64,000 bases of DNA from Gammaproteobacteria bacterium (lineage in GTDB: Bacteria; Pseudomonadota; Gammaproteobacteria; SZUA-140), in assembly GCA_026981935.1 (NCBI GenBank), contig JALSIC010000010.1:13131-77130 (forward strand). The letters are read 5' to 3'. This document shows, in pieces, positions 49,609-59,531 of this stretch. The position numbers and the translations under genes are program-made. Under the pieces are notes generated by a model. The model had not been told where the DNA came from. It did not search any database and saw only the letters and a list, made by a program, of their open reading frames with translations. Numbering within the stretch: position 1 is the first letter of the stretch; every line of letters starts with the position of its first letter.

Positions 49609-52600
49609 ATGAATCCGCGCATCCGCCTCATATCGCTCGTTTTCATGGCGCTCGCCCTGCCAGCGTTGCTCGTCTCGTGGCTGTTCTACAGCACCACTGC
49701 GCTGCAGTGGCTCCTTTCGAGCGCAACCCGGTTCCTGCCGGGCCATCTCTCCTACCAGGGTGTGACCGGCCGTCTCGCCGGCCCCCTCGCACTCGCCGCA
49801 CTGCGCTACGAAGACGAGTCCATGGTACTCGCCATCGAGCGCCTGGAACTGGACTGGCGGCCCCTGCGCCTGCTGCGCGGCGAGCTGTATGTCTCCCGCC
49901 TGGCAGGCCATGGTGCCGGGTTGCAACTGGCACCACGCGCGAAACCTTCTGCCGCAAAACCCACCACCTCCCCACCCCGCCCCGAGCTGAAACTGCCCCT
50001 TGCCGTGCATCTCGGCGAGCTGAGCCTGGAAGATCTGCGCATCACCCGCGATGCGGGCCCGCTCCTCATCCAGCGCCTCAGTCTCAGCGCCGGCTTCCGC
50101 GAAGGTCGGCTGCGCCTGCAAGCCTTTCACGCCGAGATGCCCCGCCTCAAGATGCAAGGCCATGGAAATCTCGCCACTGCCGGGGCCTATCCCCTCGATC
50201 TCACACTGCGCTTCTCGGCCACGCCACCCGGGCTGGCCCCATTCGAAGGAGCACTGGCCGCGACCGGCGACCTCGACAGCCTGGCCGTGCGCCAGACGCT
50301 GACAAGCCCCTTCAACAGCCGTCTCGAGGCCACCATCGAAAACCCCCTGGGCACGCTGCGCTGGCAGGCCCGTCTCATCGTGGAAGATCTCGATCCCGCC
50401 ACCCTGCAACCGCAATGGGAAGCGACAAAGGAGAAAGCGCTGCAGCTGCGCGGGCAGATCGAAGGCGGGGGTGGACTGGCGCGCTTCACCGTGGATGCAG
50501 CGTTGCAGGCCACCTGGCGCGGCATCCCCCTGGCAGGCCGTCTGCGGGCCGGCCATGAACCGGGGCGGCTCAAGATCGGGTCACTGGCGCTCTCGCTGCC
50601 CGGTGGCGACACCCTGTTCTCGTCCGCGGGCCGCCTGGACTATGGCGATGCGCCGCCCCGCATCGATCTGCGGGGGCACTGGCGCGCACTGCGCTGGCCC
50701 TTGTCCGGCACGCCCGTCCTGCAATCCCGTGCCGGTGATTTCCGATTGCAGGGCACGCCCGAGGACTATGGGCTTCATCTCGATGCCGACCTGGACTCGC
50801 CCCAGCTCGCCATTCAACGCCTGGTTCTGCGCCTGCGGGGGAAGAAGCAGGCCTGGCAGATAGAGCGCCTGCAGGCACGGCTCCTCGACGGGCAACTGCA
50901 GGCACAGGGTATCCTGGAGGGTGATCCGGCCACTCCCGCCGGAATGCAGTGGCGATTCCAGGCGAAAGGCAAGGGACTGAATCCCGCCCGCCGGTGGCCG
51001 GACTGGCCGGGCCGGGTGGATTTTTCCCTTGCAGGCAAGGGGCGGGGCCTGCCCCAGGGAGAGGACAGGGCAGGCTTCACCGCCACCCTCGTTCTGCGGC
51101 ATCTCGGCGGCGAGCTGCGCGGCCAGGCGCTCACGGGGTCGGGACGCCTGGAACTGGCCGATGATACGCTGCGGCTCCGGCCCCTCGTCCTCGGGGCTGG
51201 TCGCGCCCGCCTCGCCCTCTCCGGCGAGGTGGGCCGGCGCTGGGCCCTGGGCTGGTACCTGGATCTCCCCCGTCTCGACGCCCTGCTGCCCCATGCGGCA
51301 GGCACCCTGCTGGCCCGGGGCAGCCTGAGCGGTCCCCGTACCGACCCGCTGGTGGATCTGGACGCCCGGGGCAGGGGCCTGCGCTACCGGCAGCATCGCA
51401 TTGGACAGCTTTCGACCCGCGTCCAGTGGCATCCGGGCGAGGAACGCCCTGCCCGTTTGACGGTCAATGCCCTGGACCTGCATATCGGCACTCAGACACT
51501 GGCTCAGGTTTCGATCCAGGGCGCCGGTCAGAGCACCCGGCACGAGGTAAACCTGTGGCTGGATGGCAGCAGTTATCAGCTGCTTGCCCAGGCACGCGGA
51601 AGCTGGGAGGACCAAGTATGGCGCGGCCGCCTGCCCCGCCTGCGCCTCGGCCTGTTCGACGGCAGCATCTGGGAAGGCAGGCTGGAGGAGGAAATCACCC
51701 TTTCTGCCAGTGCGGCGGCCCTGCCGCGGTGGTGTCTGTCCGCGGCACCGCGGCGCCTGTGCCTGGAAGGCGCCTGGCAGCGCATGAGGGGCTGGCATGC
51801 CGCACTGGCAGGGGAAGGACTGCCCCTGACGCTGGTGCAGCCCTGGCTGCCGCCGGCGCTTGCCCTCTCGGGCGACGTCTCCCTCGATGCCGCACTGCAG
51901 GGCGATGAGCGGCAAGCAGTGCATGGCCGTTTGACACTGCGCAGCCCCGGCGGACGCCTTGTTTTTGAAACAGGCAGAACGGGCCGGGACGAACGCATCC
52001 CCCTGGCATATCGCAACCTGCAGCTCACGGGCCGCCTGCTGCAGGGGCGTCTCTCCCTGCAAGCGGATGCGGACCTGGGCACCCAGGGCAGGCTCGCGGG
52101 TGATCTCAGCCTGCCCGTGCCCGCGCTCGGAGCAGGAGATGACAAGGTGGCCGGCAACCTCGCGCTCACGCTCCGGGAACTGCGTCCCATCGCCCTCGTC
52201 GTGCCGGCGGTGGAAGAGGTCGGAGGCACGCTGCGTGCGCGCCTCAGGGCCGGCGGCACGCTGGCAGCGCCGGAAATCGATCTGCAGCTCTTGCTCGAGG
52301 AGGGCCGGTTCCAGCTGCCGACACTGGCCATCGCCCCCCGAGACATCCGTATCGAGGCTCGCAGTCACGCCGGCGCCCTCCTCTTCGAGGGCCGGGCCCG
52401 CTCCGGCCCGGGGCGTGTCACGGTCTCCGGTCGTTTCCAGCCTGCCAGGGAAAGACCCTGGCAGCTGACACTGGACGTACAGGGAGAACGTTTCCTTGCG
52501 GCGGATACCCGCGAATACCGCGTCCTGCTCTCCCCGGCATTGCGCCTGGCGCTGGATCCCGCGACCGGTTCTCTCTCGGGCACCCTGCGCATCCCGGAAG

Positions 52601-53406
52601 CAAAACTGCGCCCCCGCCGCCTTGCCGCCAGCACACCCCGGCCCTCGCCCGATGTCATCGTCATCGACGAAGGCACGGCCAAACCCGCCCTGCCTTTCCG
52701 GCTCACCAGCACAGTGCGCCTGGAACTGGGCGAGGCGGTCAAATTCGACGGCTTCGGCCTTGAGGCCCGCCTGGCGGGCGCCCTGACCATCACCGACCGT
52801 CCCGGTGAACTCGTCACGGCGACGGGGGAGCTGCGCGTAGTGGAAGGCCGATACAAGGCCTACGGACAGGACCTGCGCATCCAGCGCGGGCGCCTCATCT
52901 TCGTCGGCGGCCCCATAGACAATCCCGGCCTCGACATACGCGCCGTGCGCAAGATCGAGGATGTCACCGCCGGCCTGCACATCACCGGCGATGCCCTCCA
53001 GCCCCTGCTCAGGATCTTCTCCGACCCACCCATGAGCGAGACCGACGCCCTCGCCTACCTGCTGCTGGGCCGCCCGCCCCAGCAGGACGACCGCAGCGAC
53101 GAGGAACGGATCTCGGCCGCCGCTGCGGCCCTGGGCATCGGGGGTGCCTCCCTGCTGGGCAAGCGCCTGGGAGAGCGCCTGGGCCTGGAAGAAGTGACCG
53201 TGGAATCGGATCGGGACAGCGGCGAAATCCAGCTCAAGCTGGGCACCTATCTCTCCCCCCGTCTCTACGTCGGCTATGGCTGGGGAATGGTGGAACAGAT
53301 CAACACTTTCCTGGTGCGCTACCAGCTCAGCGAACGCATCGCCATCGAAGCCCAGAGCAGCAGCGAGGCGGTGGGCGGAGACATCCTCTTCTCCCTGGAG
53401 AGATGA
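49609..53406 (+). CDS. tamB: Translocation and assembly module inner-membrane subunit TamB (DUF490)
   Basis: 1265 aa with an N-terminal TM anchor and a C-terminal DUF490-like region (GTYLSPRLYVGYGWGMVEQINTFLVRYQLS). It is paired with tamA. Confidence 0.85.
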   Translation: MNPRIRLISLVFMALALPALLVSWLFYSTTALQWLLSSATRFLPGHLSYQGVTGRLAGPLALAALRYEDESMVLAIERLELDWRPLRLLRGELYVSRLAGHGAGLQLAPRAKPSAAKPTTSPPRPELKLPLAVHLGELSLEDLRITRDAGPLLIQRLSLSAGFREGRLRLQAFHAEMPRLKMQGHGNLATAGAYPLDLTLRFSATPPGLAPFEGALAATGDLDSLAVRQTLTSPFNSRLEATIENPLGTLRWQARLIVEDLDPATLQPQWEATKEKALQLRGQIEGGGGLARFTVDAALQATWRGIPLAGRLRAGHEPGRLKIGSLALSLPGGDTLFSSAGRLDYGDAPPRIDLRGHWRALRWPLSGTPVLQSRAGDFRLQGTPEDYGLHLDADLDSPQLAIQRLVLRLRGKKQAWQIERLQARLLDGQLQAQGILEGDPATPAGMQWRFQAKGKGLNPARRWPDWPGRVDFSLAGKGRGLPQGEDRAGFTATLVLRHLGGELRGQALTGSGRLELADDTLRLRPLVLGAGRARLALSGEVGRRWALGWYLDLPRLDALLPHAAGTLLARGSLSGPRTDPLVDLDARGRGLRYRQHRIGQLSTRVQWHPGEERPARLTVNALDLHIGTQTLAQVSIQGAGQSTRHEVNLWLDGSSYQLLAQARGSWEDQVWRGRLPRLRLGLFDGSIWEGRLEEEITLSASAAALPRWCLSAAPRRLCLEGAWQRMRGWHAALAGEGLPLTLVQPWLPPALALSGDVSLDAALQGDERQAVHGRLTLRSPGGRLVFETGRTGRDERIPLAYRNLQLTGRLLQGRLSLQADADLGTQGRLAGDLSLPVPALGAGDDKVAGNLALTLRELRPIALVVPAVEEVGGTLRARLRAGGTLAAPEIDLQLLLEEGRFQLPTLAIAPRDIRIEARSHAGALLFEGRARSGPGRVTVSGRFQPARERPWQLTLDVQGERFLAADTREYRVLLSPALRLALDPATGSLSGTLRIPEAKLRPRRLAASTPRPSPDVIVIDEGTAKPALPFRLTSTVRLELGEAVKFDGFGLEARLAGALTITDRPGELVTATGELRVVEGRYKAYGQDLRIQRGRLIFVGGPIDNPGLDIRAVRKIEDVTAGLHITGDALQPLLRIFSDPPMSETDALAYLLLGRPPQQDDRSDEERISAAAAALGIGGASLLGKRLGERLGLEEVTVESDRDSGEIQLKLGTYLSPRLYVGYGWGMVEQINTFLVRYQLSERIAIEAQSSSEAVGGDILFSLER

Positions 53407-53489
53407 ATGTCTTTCGATTCTGGATGCATTCTGGATTATTCATTCTGGATTCCGGGCAACACCGGCGCAGGTCCTTTCACCCACCCCGC

Positions 53490-54551
53490 TTACGCCCTTG
53501 CCTCGCCATGTGCCCGCACTTCGTAACCGTGACGTTCCATCCAGACCCTGGCCGCGTTTGCGTCCATGAGTTCATCCAGCGTCAGCAGCCCCCCTCTTGC
53601 CGCCGCGCCTTCCAGCAGGCGCATGACTGCCCACACCGCGGGTGCTGCGGTCAGCCTGAGACCTTCGCGCTGGGCAATCACTTCGACTGTCGCAAGGACC
53701 CCGCCACGCCCGTCCCGGGCCGCGACGAGCAGATGCCCCTCGCGGCCACCGAAGCGGCGGCAAAGACGCGCCAACGGCAGGACCCGGCGGGCCAGCCTGG
53801 ACGGCATCCCCGCAGGCAACCGGGGCAGGACATGGCTTGCGCCCTGAAGCAGCCTGTTGAGATAGAGGCGGTCGAAGCCGACGAAGAAATACACGGGCAG
53901 ACGCCGCTCCCCCAGGGTGACGCCCTGGGGGAGCGGGAAGGGGTAAAGGCCATAATGCCGCGTGAGGCCGTCGTCATGAGGGTATGCCACCAGGCGACGA
54001 AAACAGCGTTGCCCGCTGCCGCTCACTGGCCGTCCCAGGGGCTGCAGCAGGCTCGCCAGCAACCCGGCACTGACAGGGTTGCGTGAACCCATGTTGAGAT
54101 AGACCGCGATGTCCGCGCTGCGGCCCGGGTCCGCAAGAGATCCGGCCAGCAGCCTTACCAGGCCCGGTACGGTGGAACATCCCGGCACCACGGCCGCCCC
54201 GGTCTCCGCCTGCTGCCGGCAGGCGGCACTCACGCGGGCGAGAAAGGCGGCATCATCGGCGATGTCCACATAATGGATGCCGGCCGCCATGCAGGTCCTG
54301 ACCAGGGATGCCGGATCGTGATGGAAGGGGCCTGCCGCATGCACGAGAATGTCGATCCCTTCCAGGGCGGCGGCATAAGAAGCAGGATCGGCCAGGTCCA
54401 GGCGGCGCCAGGGCAGACCGAGATCACCGGGCGGGCGGCGCGAAGCCGCAAGGACCTCGACACCCCCAGCCTCGCGCAAAAAATCCACGATGAACCGGCC
54501 GATGAGACCGCTTCCTCCCAGGACCAGGACCCGGCCGCCGCAAGCGGACAT
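53490..54551 (-). CDS. Saccharopine-dehydrogenase-like NAD(P)-binding protein
   Basis: Rossmann motif VLVLGGSGLIGRFIV at the chosen internal Met start (54551); the annotated longer ORF extends to 54746. Confidence 0.6.
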   Translation of the reverse strand: MSACGGRVLVLGGSGLIGRFIVDFLREAGGVEVLAASRRPPGDLGLPWRRLDLADPASYAAALEGIDILVHAAGPFHHDPASLVRTCMAAGIHYVDIADDAAFLARVSAACRQQAETGAAVVPGCSTVPGLVRLLAGSLADPGRSADIAVYLNMGSRNPVSAGLLASLLQPLGRPVSGSGQRCFRRLVAYPHDDGLTRHYGLYPFPLPQGVTLGERRLPVYFFVGFDRLYLNRLLQGASHVLPRLPAGMPSRLARRVLPLARLCRRFGGREGHLLVAARDGRGGVLATVEVIAQREGLRLTAAPAVWAVMRLLEGAAARGGLLTLDELMDANAARVWMERHGYEVRAHGEARA

Positions 54552-55390
54552 CACCGTTCCCCGGCGAGCAACGGCTGCGCGGCCCGGAAGGCAAGGTAGT
54601 GTTCTCTTACCCGCTCGGCGCTGGATGCCCTGGGCTGTTCGCGAAAGGCCTGCTCCAGCACGGCCTTGACAGCCATGGCCCATGGAGAGGAGGGGATGAG
54701 GTCGTACATGGCACCCGAGGCAAAGACCAGCACCCGCTCGGGCCAATTGTAATCAGGTCGTTCCAGCGCCACGAAATAGGGGTTGCCCTGGGGGAGCGGA
54801 ACAACCGGCACGGGCTGTTCAATATCAAGACTCCGATCGGGCAGGAGCGCCAGGTCTTCTTCTCCGGTCACGGACACCATCACGGCGATGACGAAAGCAG
54901 TCACCAGCCCGGGCGCCCACCACAACTTGCGCTGCAGCACCATTATGCCCCCGGCAAACACGGCCGCCCAGTGCATGGCCGCCATGGCCAGCAGGAAAGT
55001 GGGATAGATAACGGCGGGCAGGCCCACGGCAAGCAGCAGCCACTCACCCAGCGTGGCCACCCAGCCTGCAAACACCATGACGGGAAAGTAAGCCACGCGC
55101 CACACCACGGCTGCGCCCAGGATGAGCAGCAAGCGCAGGCCGGGCCGGTCGACACGTCGCCACAGGAACAGGACCGCCAGGCCGACACCCGACAGGGAAG
55201 CGAATTGAAAGGCTGCAAAGAGCGCGGCCTGCTCCAGGACAGGCCGCGCATCCAACCACAGGCCCAGGCCTGCGAGAATTACCGCCGCGCCCAGGAAAGC
55301 GGCGCCCTGCGGGCGGCTCAAAACACCCGCATCTTCTGCAGCTCGGGGGCTGCCTCGTCCAGTCGCATGGCGAGCGTGGGCAGACGGCAT
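54551..55390 (-). CDS. Hypothetical integral membrane protein (~5 TM) with a soluble C-terminal domain
   Basis: Overlaps the stop of the upstream desaturase gene and the start of the dehydrogenase-like gene (coupled operon). No recognisable family. The start is uncertain; a GTG near 55324 is possible. Confidence 0.45.
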   Translation of the reverse strand: MPSAHARHATGRGSPRAAEDAGVLSRPQGAAFLGAAVILAGLGLWLDARPVLEQAALFAAFQFASLSGVGLAVLFLWRRVDRPGLRLLLILGAAVVWRVAYFPVMVFAGWVATLGEWLLLAVGLPAVIYPTFLLAMAAMHWAAVFAGGIMVLQRKLWWAPGLVTAFVIAVMVSVTGEEDLALLPDRSLDIEQPVPVVPLPQGNPYFVALERPDYNWPERVLVFASGAMYDLIPSSPWAMAVKAVLEQAFREQPRASSAERVREHYLAFRAAQPLLAGER

Positions 55391-56115
55391 GTAGGCACCT
55401 TGGGAAAGAGATGGTGCTCCACATGATAAAACATGTTGTAGGTGAGCAGCGACTTGAGCCGCCCCCGGATGGTGCGTGCAATGAAGTGGCTGCGATCACA
55501 ATGGTAATGGACGGTCCACACGGCGAAAAAGGCCGTCAGGCAATTGGCGATCAGCATCACGATGACATGATACTGAAGGAAGGCAATATCCCAGACAAAC
55601 AACACCAGGGCAATCCAGATCACGTTGGCCGCAAGCTCGGCGATGATCCAGCGGCGCAGTCTCTGGCTGCCCAGCCTCAAGGCCGTTGCATGCAACAGGA
55701 TGGGAAACTTGGGCCCGAAGAGAATGGCCTGCCACCATTTCATGCGCGCGCTGCGCGCCTCCACATCCTCCTCATTCATGCAATAGCGGTGATGGCGCAG
55801 GTGATTGAACTGCACCGCATGCATGGAACCCAGCATGATGATACTGAACAGGAACATGAAATATTCGTGACCCTGCCTGCTGATGCCGATGGCATAGTGA
55901 TAGGCGTTGTGAACCTGTCTCAGGCCACAAAGAAAAAACATGAATGAAGCCCCCAGTGCGAAGAACCAGAGTTCGTAATGGGCTAGAACCAGTGACAGCA
56001 CCAGCCACGGTGCGGAAATGAAAAGTTCATGGATCACTTCCCAGCGGGACAGATCGCAGAGATCCCGCCACTCCACGCTGCGCACTCTTTCATCATGCAT
56101 TATTTCCAGCGCCAT
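55318..56115 (-). CDS. Fatty-acid-desaturase-family membrane protein (three His boxes)
   Basis: His boxes HNAYHY, HLRHHRY and HVEHHLFP in a 265-aa polytopic protein. Confidence 0.7.
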   Translation of the reverse strand: MALEIMHDERVRSVEWRDLCDLSRWEVIHELFISAPWLVLSLVLAHYELWFFALGASFMFFLCGLRQVHNAYHYAIGISRQGHEYFMFLFSIIMLGSMHAVQFNHLRHHRYCMNEEDVEARSARMKWWQAILFGPKFPILLHATALRLGSQRLRRWIIAELAANVIWIALVLFVWDIAFLQYHVIVMLIANCLTAFFAVWTVHYHCDRSHFIARTIRGRLKSLLTYNMFYHVEHHLFPKVPTCRLPTLAMRLDEAAPELQKMRVF

Positions 56116-56384
56116 GAGACTCCCCCCTTTTGTTTTTTCTTGATTTCAACAGGCTGCCGAGAAGACTCGGACGACGCGCGGCGGGATGAAGCACCGGTCC
56201 AGAAGCGCATTCACCCTGTTTGCAGCGCTTTTTCCCGCTCCCACCTTGCTCCGTACCTGCCGGAGGCTCTCTCAACAGCCCGTTCAGGACGAAGCTGCTT
56301 CCTGGTATCAATGCGGCCCGCCTACCCCGACCCTCTTCGGCCCAACCCCCGTCCCATGAAAAAAATTACGGCAGAATCAAACCG

Positions 56385-56735
56385 TCACAAATGGGCGTTG
56401 AGAATACGGGACTTCAGAATCTTGGGGTTGCCATTGGCATGTTTCTTGGCCGCCTTGAAATGCATGGCCGCTTCCCCATGACGCCCCAGCTTGTCAAGGG
56501 CAATGGCTTCATTGAAATGGGTCTCTCCCGAGGGCTCGATCCTGGAAGCCTCGCTGAAATGCATGAGTGCGGAGCGGTAATCCCCCTTGTTCCAGGCAGC
56601 AATGCCCTCATCGTTGTGCATTACCGCTGACGGATTGGCTCCTTCCGGAAGTTTCAGCGGGCCTTCCCCGGCAAGCACGCTGAAAGAGACGAGACTGAAC
56701 AAAAGGACAAAACAGGCAGTGGCTGTTCTTCTCAT
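56385..56735 (-). CDS. Small secreted TPR-like protein
   Basis: Signal peptide plus two TPR-like helices (AWNKGDYRSALMHFSEASRIEP...FNEAIALDKLGRHGEAAMHFKAA). Confidence 0.55.
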   Translation of the reverse strand: MRRTATACFVLLFSLVSFSVLAGEGPLKLPEGANPSAVMHNDEGIAAWNKGDYRSALMHFSEASRIEPSGETHFNEAIALDKLGRHGEAAMHFKAAKKHANGNPKILKSRILNAHL

Positions 56736-57423: not shown

Positions 57424-57663
57424 GAACAGCCCCCTTTACTTGTCAGGCCAATTTGCGCCGGAACAGGTCGCTGCGCCGGCTCACAAGCCGGTCGAGAAAC
57501 AGCAGTCCGTCGAGATGATCGATTTCATGCTGCGCGACACGGGCCTCGATGCCCGGGCGATCCCTGCCCACCACGGCGAGCATGTACCAGGACGGCGTGC
57601 CTTGTTTTGTCATGGTCGATGCACCCTATGGATGAAATTGCAATGACGGGTATCTGCCGGGTG

Positions 57664-58734: not shown

Positions 58735-59478
58735 TCACCGGGACGCATCGATGGCCTGCTGCAGAACCGCCATCACCTCTTCATGCTCGTTCTTGCGGGC
58801 CCAGGTCATGGCGGTCTCGCCGTCCTTGTTGCGGGCATTGACATCGGCCCCGTTTTCCAGCAGCAGCTCAACCATCTCCAGGTGCCCCTGGCGCGCCGCC
58901 CGCATGAGGGCGGTATGCCCGTCACGGGCCTGGTGGTTCACATCGGCGCCCTTGTCCAGCAGCAGCCGGACGATATCGCGATGTCCGAGAAAGGCAGCCA
59001 CCATGAGGGGGGTGAGGCCGTTCTTGTTCTGCCTGTCCACCTCGGCACCCCGTTCCAGGAGCATTTCGATCATTTCAGGATCGTCCTGCATGGGCATGAT
59101 GAGCAAGGCGGTGTTGCCCATGCGGTCGATGTCGTTGACCTTGGCGCCACGGTCCAGTAACTCCCGCGCCAGGTCCTTGTACCCGCCGGAGATGGCCAGC
59201 ATCAGCGGTGTCACGCCCAGGTCCCCCTTGGCATTGACATCGGCCTGCTTGTGCAGGAGGCTGCGGGCCACGTCCAGATACCCCTTGCGAATGGCCACGG
59301 CCAGTACCGGATCGTCGGCCGGGTTACGGGCATTGACATCGGCGCCCTGCTCGATGAGCGCCAGCGCCCTGTTCACGTCGCCTTCGTCCAGGGCGTCCAC
59401 CAGGGGCGAACGACCGCAGGCCGCCAGCAGCAACAGCAGGCTGCCCACCAGGATTGTCATTGCATTGGTTTTCATCAT
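58735..59478 (-). CDS. Ankyrin-repeat lipoprotein
   Basis: Lipobox LLLLAACG followed by ~6 ANK repeats (G-TPLM-A...GH...LL--GADVN). The long ORF to 59910 is an upstream overextension. Confidence 0.75.
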   Translation of the reverse strand: MMKTNAMTILVGSLLLLLAACGRSPLVDALDEGDVNRALALIEQGADVNARNPADDPVLAVAIRKGYLDVARSLLHKQADVNAKGDLGVTPLMLAISGGYKDLARELLDRGAKVNDIDRMGNTALLIMPMQDDPEMIEMLLERGAEVDRQNKNGLTPLMVAAFLGHRDIVRLLLDKGADVNHQARDGHTALMRAARQGHLEMVELLLENGADVNARNKDGETAMTWARKNEHEEVMAVLQQAIDASR

Positions 59479-59531
59479 CCCATCAAGCACGTTCTGACCA
59501 GGGTCTCCCGGAAGGGGGCAATTGTACATGA

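Follow-up and report, generated by a model that had tools for sequence, protein, structure and literature searches.

What do three adjoining minus-strand genes at positions 53490-56115 of a 64,000-nucleotide (nt) stretch of gammaproteobacterial DNA (contig JALSIC010000010.1; this whole stretch is referred to as the window) do together, and do they belong together at all? The genes encode a desaturase-like membrane protein (DES), an unclassified membrane protein (MID) and an oxidoreductase resembling saccharopine dehydrogenase (SDH). Comparative analysis revealed that DES-MID-SDH is a genuine operon conserved across four bacterial lineages. As to its role, the reading favoured here, with moderate confidence, is that of an O2-dependent, membrane-associated module that would modify a hydrophobic, membrane-resident substrate.

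Gene models and conservation of the operon

Three consecutive co-directional open reading frames (ORFs) on the minus strand fill the interval 53490-56115 exactly. DES (56115..55318; ATG to TGA, 265 aa) is the first gene, followed by MID (55321..54551; TTG start, 256 aa), predicted to encode a polytopic membrane protein, and by SDH (54551..53490; ATG start, 353 aa), encoding a NAD(P)-binding oxidoreductase. The genes overlap at both junctions, as had been claimed, but only minimally: by 4 nt between DES and MID (TTGA, in which the MID TTG start crosses the DES stop) and by 1 nt between MID and SDH (TGATG, in which the SDH ATG meets the MID TGA). The 73-nt overlap of the longest-ORF models stems from a MID start at ATG 55390, which was rejected because the homologues begin at the equivalent of residue 24. 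The longest-ORF start of SDH, TTG 54746, was likewise discarded. The starts at TTG 55321 and ATG 54551 were adopted because they agree with the homologues and with the genes called in a close relative; for MID, TTG 55321 also matches an identical database protein (P0001). The close relative, contig L033, derives from a metagenome-assembled genome (MAG) and has the same gene order, called lengths of 265, 256 and 353 aa, and an SDH 88% identical to that of the window.

Comparison of the window with L033 (synonymous divergence, dS, 0.16-0.28) gave ratios of nonsynonymous to synonymous divergence (dN/dS) of 0.02 for DES, 0.17 for MID and 0.24 for SDH. Therefore, all three genes, MID included, are under purifying selection.

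The distribution of the operon was examined in a survey of MID loci restricted to one genome per species, which yielded 25 MID-encoding loci, all in MAGs. Their hosts belong to the Gammaproteobacteria (including Chromatiaceae and Ectothiorhodospiraceae), the Nitrosomonadales (Nitrotoga, Gallionellaceae), the Myxococcota/'Deltaproteobacteria' and the Spirochaetales. In 23 of the 25 loci DES immediately precedes MID, and SDH is found downstream in each of the 21 independent loci that have DES and sufficient downstream sequence. Since the same order and strand recur in 21/21 cases, the arrangement is beyond chance. The tight junctions also recur: MID and SDH overlap by 4 nt in loci L003 and L114 and by 1 nt in L004, DES and MID overlap by 4 nt in L115, and elsewhere, in other phyla, overlaps or short gaps are found at the same junctions. 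The original prediction of three coupled genes forming an operon, which had turned on a coding signature in MID and on co-occurrence of the genes in other genomes, is borne out on both counts.

Two public contigs identical to the window, L001 and L002, carry a different annotation of SDH, which is called there as a 266-aa truncated product plus a 92-aa antisense ORF (L001 8723-9001 and 9032-9832; L002 3142-3420 and 3451-4251; equivalent to window 53490-54599). Since the 353-aa frame is intact and is called correctly in L033, the public 266-aa protein (P0142) is a miscalled SDH fragment.

Properties of the three proteins

DES matched the Pfam FA_desaturase profile PF00487 (E=4e-21; 76.3 bits; cut-off 29.7) over profile positions 6-244 of 253. 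Three His boxes were identified, HNAYH(Y) at residues 69-74, HLRHH at 105-109 and HVEHH at 231-235, and the residues H69/H73, H105/H108/H109 and H231/H234/H235, as well as H99 and H203, do not vary among 23 DES homologues (60-90% identity). The hydropathy profile fits two transmembrane hairpins, 26-65 and 155-204. DES thus belongs to this family and, as judged from its sequence, is predicted to be a four-span di-iron enzyme with a complete set of His ligands, in agreement with the desaturase/hydroxylase-type assignment made originally. The HX3H/HX2HH/HX2HH boxes, the four-span-like hydropathy and a size near that of CrtW are shared with the PF00487 superfamily (acyl-lipid desaturases, CrtW, CrtR, GntB). 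Within it DES forms a subfamily of its own, and none of the curated NCBIfam models for CrtW (NF045690), CrtR (NF045688), DesA or GntB matched it at E<=0.1. No solved structure with a sequence relationship to DES was found by single-sequence or profile search.

These results bear on the proposal, offered as an example in the original prediction, that the enzyme is a carotenoid ketolase or hydroxylase. A CrtW sequence matched NF045690 at 203 bits, so the model was present in the library, and DES is 25% identical to that sequence over 171 aa. The identification of DES as CrtW or CrtR was therefore rejected. Nor were the carotenoid genes crtB, crtI and crtY detected in the Pfam-annotated neighbourhoods or in a scan covering recurrent and selected neighbouring ORFs, and the carotenoid example is not supported.

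A broader version of this idea is that the operon serves to introduce a double bond, a hydroxyl group or a keto group into a hopanoid, a squalene-derived lipid or a carotenoid. CrtW-type ketolases are indeed of similar size to DES and belong to the same Pfam family. Moreover, in one vent gammaproteobacterial lineage (L004, L005 and L006) the operon is divergent from adjacent hpnD-hpnE genes, both scoring above the NCBIfam equivalog cut-offs, and, according to a 2019 paper (PMC6460317), the enzyme responsible for desaturation of the hopanoid core had not been established. However, this adjacency is confined to one lineage among more than 25 operon loci; hpn genes were found neither in the window nor in the other annotated or clustered neighbourhoods. 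In L116 the operon adjoins ispDF-ftsB-eno, but this is a housekeeping block, to which ispDF belongs. The hosts also include Nitrotoga and Gallionellaceae MAGs, a further point against an isoprenoid substrate of this kind, as are the CrtW/CrtR and crt results given above. We regard this reading as quite unlikely.

SDH is soluble according to its hydropathy. It matched PF03435 (36.6 bits; cut-off 25.1) only in the N-terminal domain, where the GxxGxxG motif (G12, G15, G18) and Arg38 are invariant; the enzyme is probably NADP(H)-specific. A structural model (predicted local distance difference test, pLDDT, 93.3) aligned along its entire chain with solved enzymes of the saccharopine-reductase fold: L-lysine dehydrogenase (3abi; match score 28.6), saccharopine dehydrogenase (4ina; 27.1), the saccharopine reductase domain of human AASS (5l76; 26.7), saccharopine reductase (1e5l; 25.7), homospermidine synthase (6s3x; 24.2) and BioU (6itd; 20.1). 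The modelled SDH is thus a two-domain protein of the saccharopine-reductase/L-lysine-dehydrogenase fold, including its alpha/beta substrate domain, so that the original assignment holds for the fold as a whole. SDH is set apart from the saccharopine reductase, L-lysine 6-dehydrogenase, homospermidine synthase and BioU family by a sequence identity of only 12-16% to these solved enzymes, by the restriction of its Pfam match to the N-terminal part, and by being encoded beside two membrane proteins instead of amino-acid or polyamine pathway genes.

Since all solved relatives of this fold carry out C-N redox reactions, on amino acids or polyamines, it has to be considered whether the operon directs amine chemistry, a reading not raised in the original prediction. 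DES would then hydroxylate an amino-bearing substrate, as GntB does with L-arginine, and SDH would perform C-N redox on it, by oxidative deamination or by reductive amination/cyclisation; an ornithine or lysine lipid, an amino-hopanoid, a long-chain amine or a free amino acid are candidates. The existence of GntB, a desaturase-like amino-acid hydroxylase with its own NCBIfam model, is a precedent, but DES does not match that model. In the Myxococcota the operon lies in a larger cluster (L114 2809-8324; L115 5829-7031 and 9859-11982; L003 9895-12568) containing, within a few kb, a di-iron oxygenase of the AurF type (in no fewer than 4 distinct loci) and a class-III (omega) aminotransferase (3 distinct loci), both of which suit an amine substrate; these two genes are found only in the Myxococcota, and neither in the window nor in other Proteobacteria. 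No nonribosomal peptide synthetase or other amino-acid-pathway genes were present among the annotated neighbourhoods. The same cluster encodes a protein of ~160 aa without a family (8 distinct loci), a mycolate-reductase-like short-chain dehydrogenase/reductase (SDR) with an N-terminal extension of ~145 aa and, sometimes, a cytochrome P450 together with a TetR regulator. The whole resembles an uncharacterised gene cluster for a lipid or a secondary metabolite.

The fold of SDH need not dictate amine chemistry, because PF03435 includes the lipid enoyl reductase Rv2953. This mycobacterial protein, of the PF03435 type, serves in phthiocerol dimycocerosate synthesis as a trans-acting enoyl reductase that works with a polyketide synthase. 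It is a saccharopine-dehydrogenase-like NADP-binding protein acting on a lipid intermediate and not on an amino acid; it differs in that its partner is a polyketide synthase, whereas that of SDH is a desaturase. On balance, amine-directed chemistry appears rather unlikely.

Residues 5-154 of MID are hydrophobic. In an AlphaFold2 model (pLDDT 94.3) helices occupy residues 4-24, 31-54, 60-76/78-98, 106-130 and 133-150, and a helical tail of ~100 aa follows the membrane part. Since residues 60-98 form one helix with a one-residue kink, the model is consistent with either 5 or 6 spans within residues 4-150. The earlier account of MID is therefore upheld as regards the polytopic architecture, the soluble tail and the lack of a family match, while the number of spans, given there as five, may be 5 or 6. 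MID did not match any Pfam or NCBIfam model, 52 diverse members scanned singly at E<=1 had no family in common, and comparison of the model with solved structures gave no significant match.

Among 1.84 billion representative proteins a profile search recovered only 102 members, and MID is a real but rare family. Two residues are invariant in it (R75, W214) and six nearly so (G20, P80, D156, Y182, P210, A248). The possibility that MID is a spurious ORF was discarded in view of its dN/dS, these homologues and the confidence of the model. A role as an electron carrier or a haem/metal protein was also rejected, since no Cys/His metal or haem motif is conserved across the family. One database protein (P0229) represents either a fusion of an M48 peptidase with MID or a fused gene call.

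Predicted function and the wider DES family

In the reading favoured here, that of a module modifying a membrane-resident substrate, DES would perform the O2-dependent step, a hydroxylation or a desaturation. SDH would carry out the adjacent pyridine-nucleotide redox step on the same molecule, either oxidising the new alcohol or an amine, or reducing a C=N or C=C bond; its fold and cofactor site are those described above. MID may act as a non-redox accessory membrane subunit, probably in substrate handling, as an adaptor, or in handing on the product. The 4-nt and 1-nt overlaps could couple the translation of the genes and so help to hold the three products in fixed proportion. The substrate may be a lipid or an isoprenoid.

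Such a combination of a His-box membrane oxygenase, a dehydrogenase and a small membrane partner has, by analogy, a known counterpart in the sterol C-4 demethylation complex, in which ERG25 is a membrane di-iron oxidase, ERG26/ERG27 are NAD(P) dehydrogenase/reductase components and ERG28 is a non-catalytic membrane scaffold. The likeness lies in the set of parts (a His-box oxygenase and a pyridine-nucleotide oxidoreductase, alongside a small non-catalytic protein that spans the membrane several times), and no homology is claimed: ERG25 belongs to FA_hydroxylase (PF04116) and DES to PF00487, while ERG26/27 are SDRs and SDH has the saccharopine-reductase fold. Furthermore, no sterol-synthesis gene lies beside the operon in the annotated neighbourhoods, and MID lacks a match among solved structures. 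What differs here is the saccharopine-reductase-fold partner and the unclassified membrane subunit. No description of the DES-MID-SDH operon was found in the literature searched, nor of DUF4166 or of a DUF1731-desaturase pairing.

Several observations weigh against the favoured reading. No reductase or ferredoxin gene is encoded within the operon, and SDH was rejected as the electron donor of DES: it appears to be a nicotinamide-only Rossmann enzyme, and, because no flavin or Fe-S signature was detected in it, it should not be able to feed electrons to DES. The charge distribution of MID (basic clusters at residues 55-62 and 131-133, an acidic stretch at 151-180) favours five spans with a periplasmic C-terminal tail, and with its tail so placed MID would be unlikely to anchor the cytoplasmic SDH by means of that domain. 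At two loci, L015 and L028, MID is present without DES or SDH. Every host of the operon is an uncultured MAG. Finally, DES can work alone. This follows from a profile survey of 80 metagenome loci, whose arrangements were assigned by profile hidden Markov models, in which ~70 of the 80 DES genes lack both MID and SDH. The remaining arrangements comprise the complete operon (L042, L067), a possible operon cut by the contig end (L038), DES-SDH without MID (L034, L040, L043) and DES-MID without SDH (L089, L110).

The DES family as a whole is large and unusually conserved. More than 1,600 clusters at 90% identity were found (1,625 in a word-based search), the best 120 being at least 59% identical to the DES of the window, and an identity of ~60% was observed between MAGs labelled as different phyla. 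Among these, the named homologues belong to Vampirovibrio, Armatimonadota, Chloroflexia, Actinomycetota and Natronospirillum; that of Natronospirillum operosum (P0114) is a match in a cultured organism. A plasmid collection contained no DES homologue at E<=1e-10.

In a neighbour-joining tree of a de-duplicated set (in which 38 of the DES-only loci have at least 1.5 kb downstream), the operon-linked DES proteins form essentially a single clade, with L067 and L089 as exceptions. This clade splits into a branch of Gamma/Nitrosomonadales sequences and one of Myxococcota/Spirochaete sequences, the latter including the DES-SDH pairs that lack MID. From the tree, the operon appears to be a single specialised branch of a broad DES family, and a secondary loss of MID is indicated for some lineages that retain DES-SDH.

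The prevalence of solitary DES genes could also mean that DES merely desaturates acyl lipids (phospholipid fatty acids) to adjust membrane fluidity, as ordinary desaturases do, with MID and SDH co-transcribed but acting on something different. PF00487 is named after fatty-acid desaturases, and DES is mostly found alone, often with a MarR-type regulator (11 DES-only loci), as might be expected of a stress-responsive membrane enzyme. Characterised acyl-lipid desaturases are, however, generally longer than the 265 aa of DES; the NCBIfam DesA Delta5-desaturase model, which DES does not match, has 328 positions. The fixed gene order and the overlapping or close frames across four lineages argue instead for a joint function. 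Because of these features and the separate clade of operon-linked DES, a fluidity desaturase with two unrelated passengers is very unlikely; were the operon merely a lineage-specific accessory to such an enzyme, its interest would be local.

Other genes recur beside DES. An extended SDR of the YfcH/TIGR01777 type (Epimerase and DUF1731 domains) was found at 9 DES-only loci, often abutting DES, and a protein of this type also follows the operon in Nitrosomonadales. In L032 an extended-SDR protein with weak HpnA/SdmB-like matches lies ~400 nt downstream of DES. The recurrence of these neighbours suggests that the pairing of the DES family with a pyridine-nucleotide oxidoreductase is a general one. 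A CoA_binding_2 protein was present at 5 DES-only loci. Standalone DUF4166 genes adjoin DES or DES-MID in the absence of SDH (L057 6834-7349, L089 4918-5472, L110 1452-1982), and in distant paralogues of 530-570 aa SDH is fused to DUF4166 (SDH::DUF4166); together, these observations point to a Rosetta-stone-type link between the parts. The fusion loci L118 and L119 have no desaturase nearby and gave no functional lead.

At the DES-SDH locus L043 (2479-5517), the next genes encode the beta and alpha subunits of a nitrile hydratase and an enzyme of the MbnB/TglH/ChrH type, which modifies ribosomally synthesised and post-translationally modified peptides; an adjoining peptide natural-product cluster is thus indicated.

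If the three proteins share one substrate, the operon defines an unstudied lipid- or metabolite-modifying pathway of sulfur-, iron- and nitrite-oxidising Proteobacteria, Myxococcota and spirochaetes of sediments, vents and groundwater. It would also give the first functional handle on the widespread, conserved DES subfamily and on the MID family, and the role of SDH would broaden the substrate range known for the saccharopine-reductase fold. The possible products, unusual unsaturated, oxygenated or nitrogen-bearing lipids, could serve as biomarkers. A more specific and speculative proposal, to which we assign a low probability, is that the operon builds or remodels an undescribed class of bacterial membrane lipid: DES would oxidise the lipid, C-N redox by SDH would install, remove or cyclise an amino function, and MID would present or export the substrate. 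If true, a fold known from solved enzymes of amino acids, polyamines and other small amines would here be turned to a lipid.

Surroundings of the operon in the window

Upstream of the DES ATG, a putative leader/promoter region of 252 nt (56116..56367, minus strand) is non-coding and extends to a terminator-like hairpin with a T-run (56368..56385, minus strand), identified in a consensus scan at the end of an upstream tetratricopeptide repeat gene. This hairpin can be taken as no more than a weak indication of the 5' boundary of the operon, since such sites in the region do not exceed the counts obtained after shuffling. A Shine-Dalgarno sequence, GGGGGGAG, is located 5 nt upstream of the DES ATG, and the last ~50 nt before this codon are, by eye, nearly identical in the window and L033. 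The consensus scan detected no sigma-70 match on the operon strand in the leader region, and no Rfam family was found in or around the operon.

At its other end the operon is convergent with tamB (49609-53406, plus strand), as originally stated, the two stop codons being separated by an 83-nt spacer (53407..53489). The placement of the operon 'among accessory genes' proved to be a loose description: it is flanked by a bamD-rluD-pgeF housekeeping block and by tamAB, an arrangement common only to the window and the close relative L033. The tamB-SDH spacer contains three direct copies of ATTCTGGAT within about 53413-53451, at spacings of 11 and 14 nt. In the whole window this sequence occurs 4 times (0.41 expected), 3 of the 4 copies lying in the spacer. 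Since the equivalent position in L033 is occupied by another triple repeat, CCCAGCATTCCC-like, the spacer appears to be a site of variable short repeats.

The G+C content is lower over 55500-56000, within DES (0.54), than in MID, SDH and tamB (0.65-0.70). DES is the most conserved of the three genes, and its G+C content at second codon positions (0.36) reflects the hydrophobic composition of the protein.

Three further features of the window were recorded. At ~57443-57613 on the minus strand (L001 5709-5879), between a ZIP transporter gene and a DUF3592 gene, a 56-aa gene call matches peptide deformylase (PF01327) and is far below the normal length of deformylases; it may be a gene remnant and has no counterpart among the gene calls of L033 at this position. 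The minus-strand gene at 58735-59529, between the ZIP transporter and a pgeF-like gene, encodes by eye ankyrin-like repeats (GADVNA... motifs), for which no Pfam match is on record in L001 or L033. Finally, a cluster of tRNA genes (Trp, Thr, Gly, Tyr) occupies 38795-40748 on the minus strand in the usual arrangement near tufB/secE, an ordinary feature unrelated to the operon.

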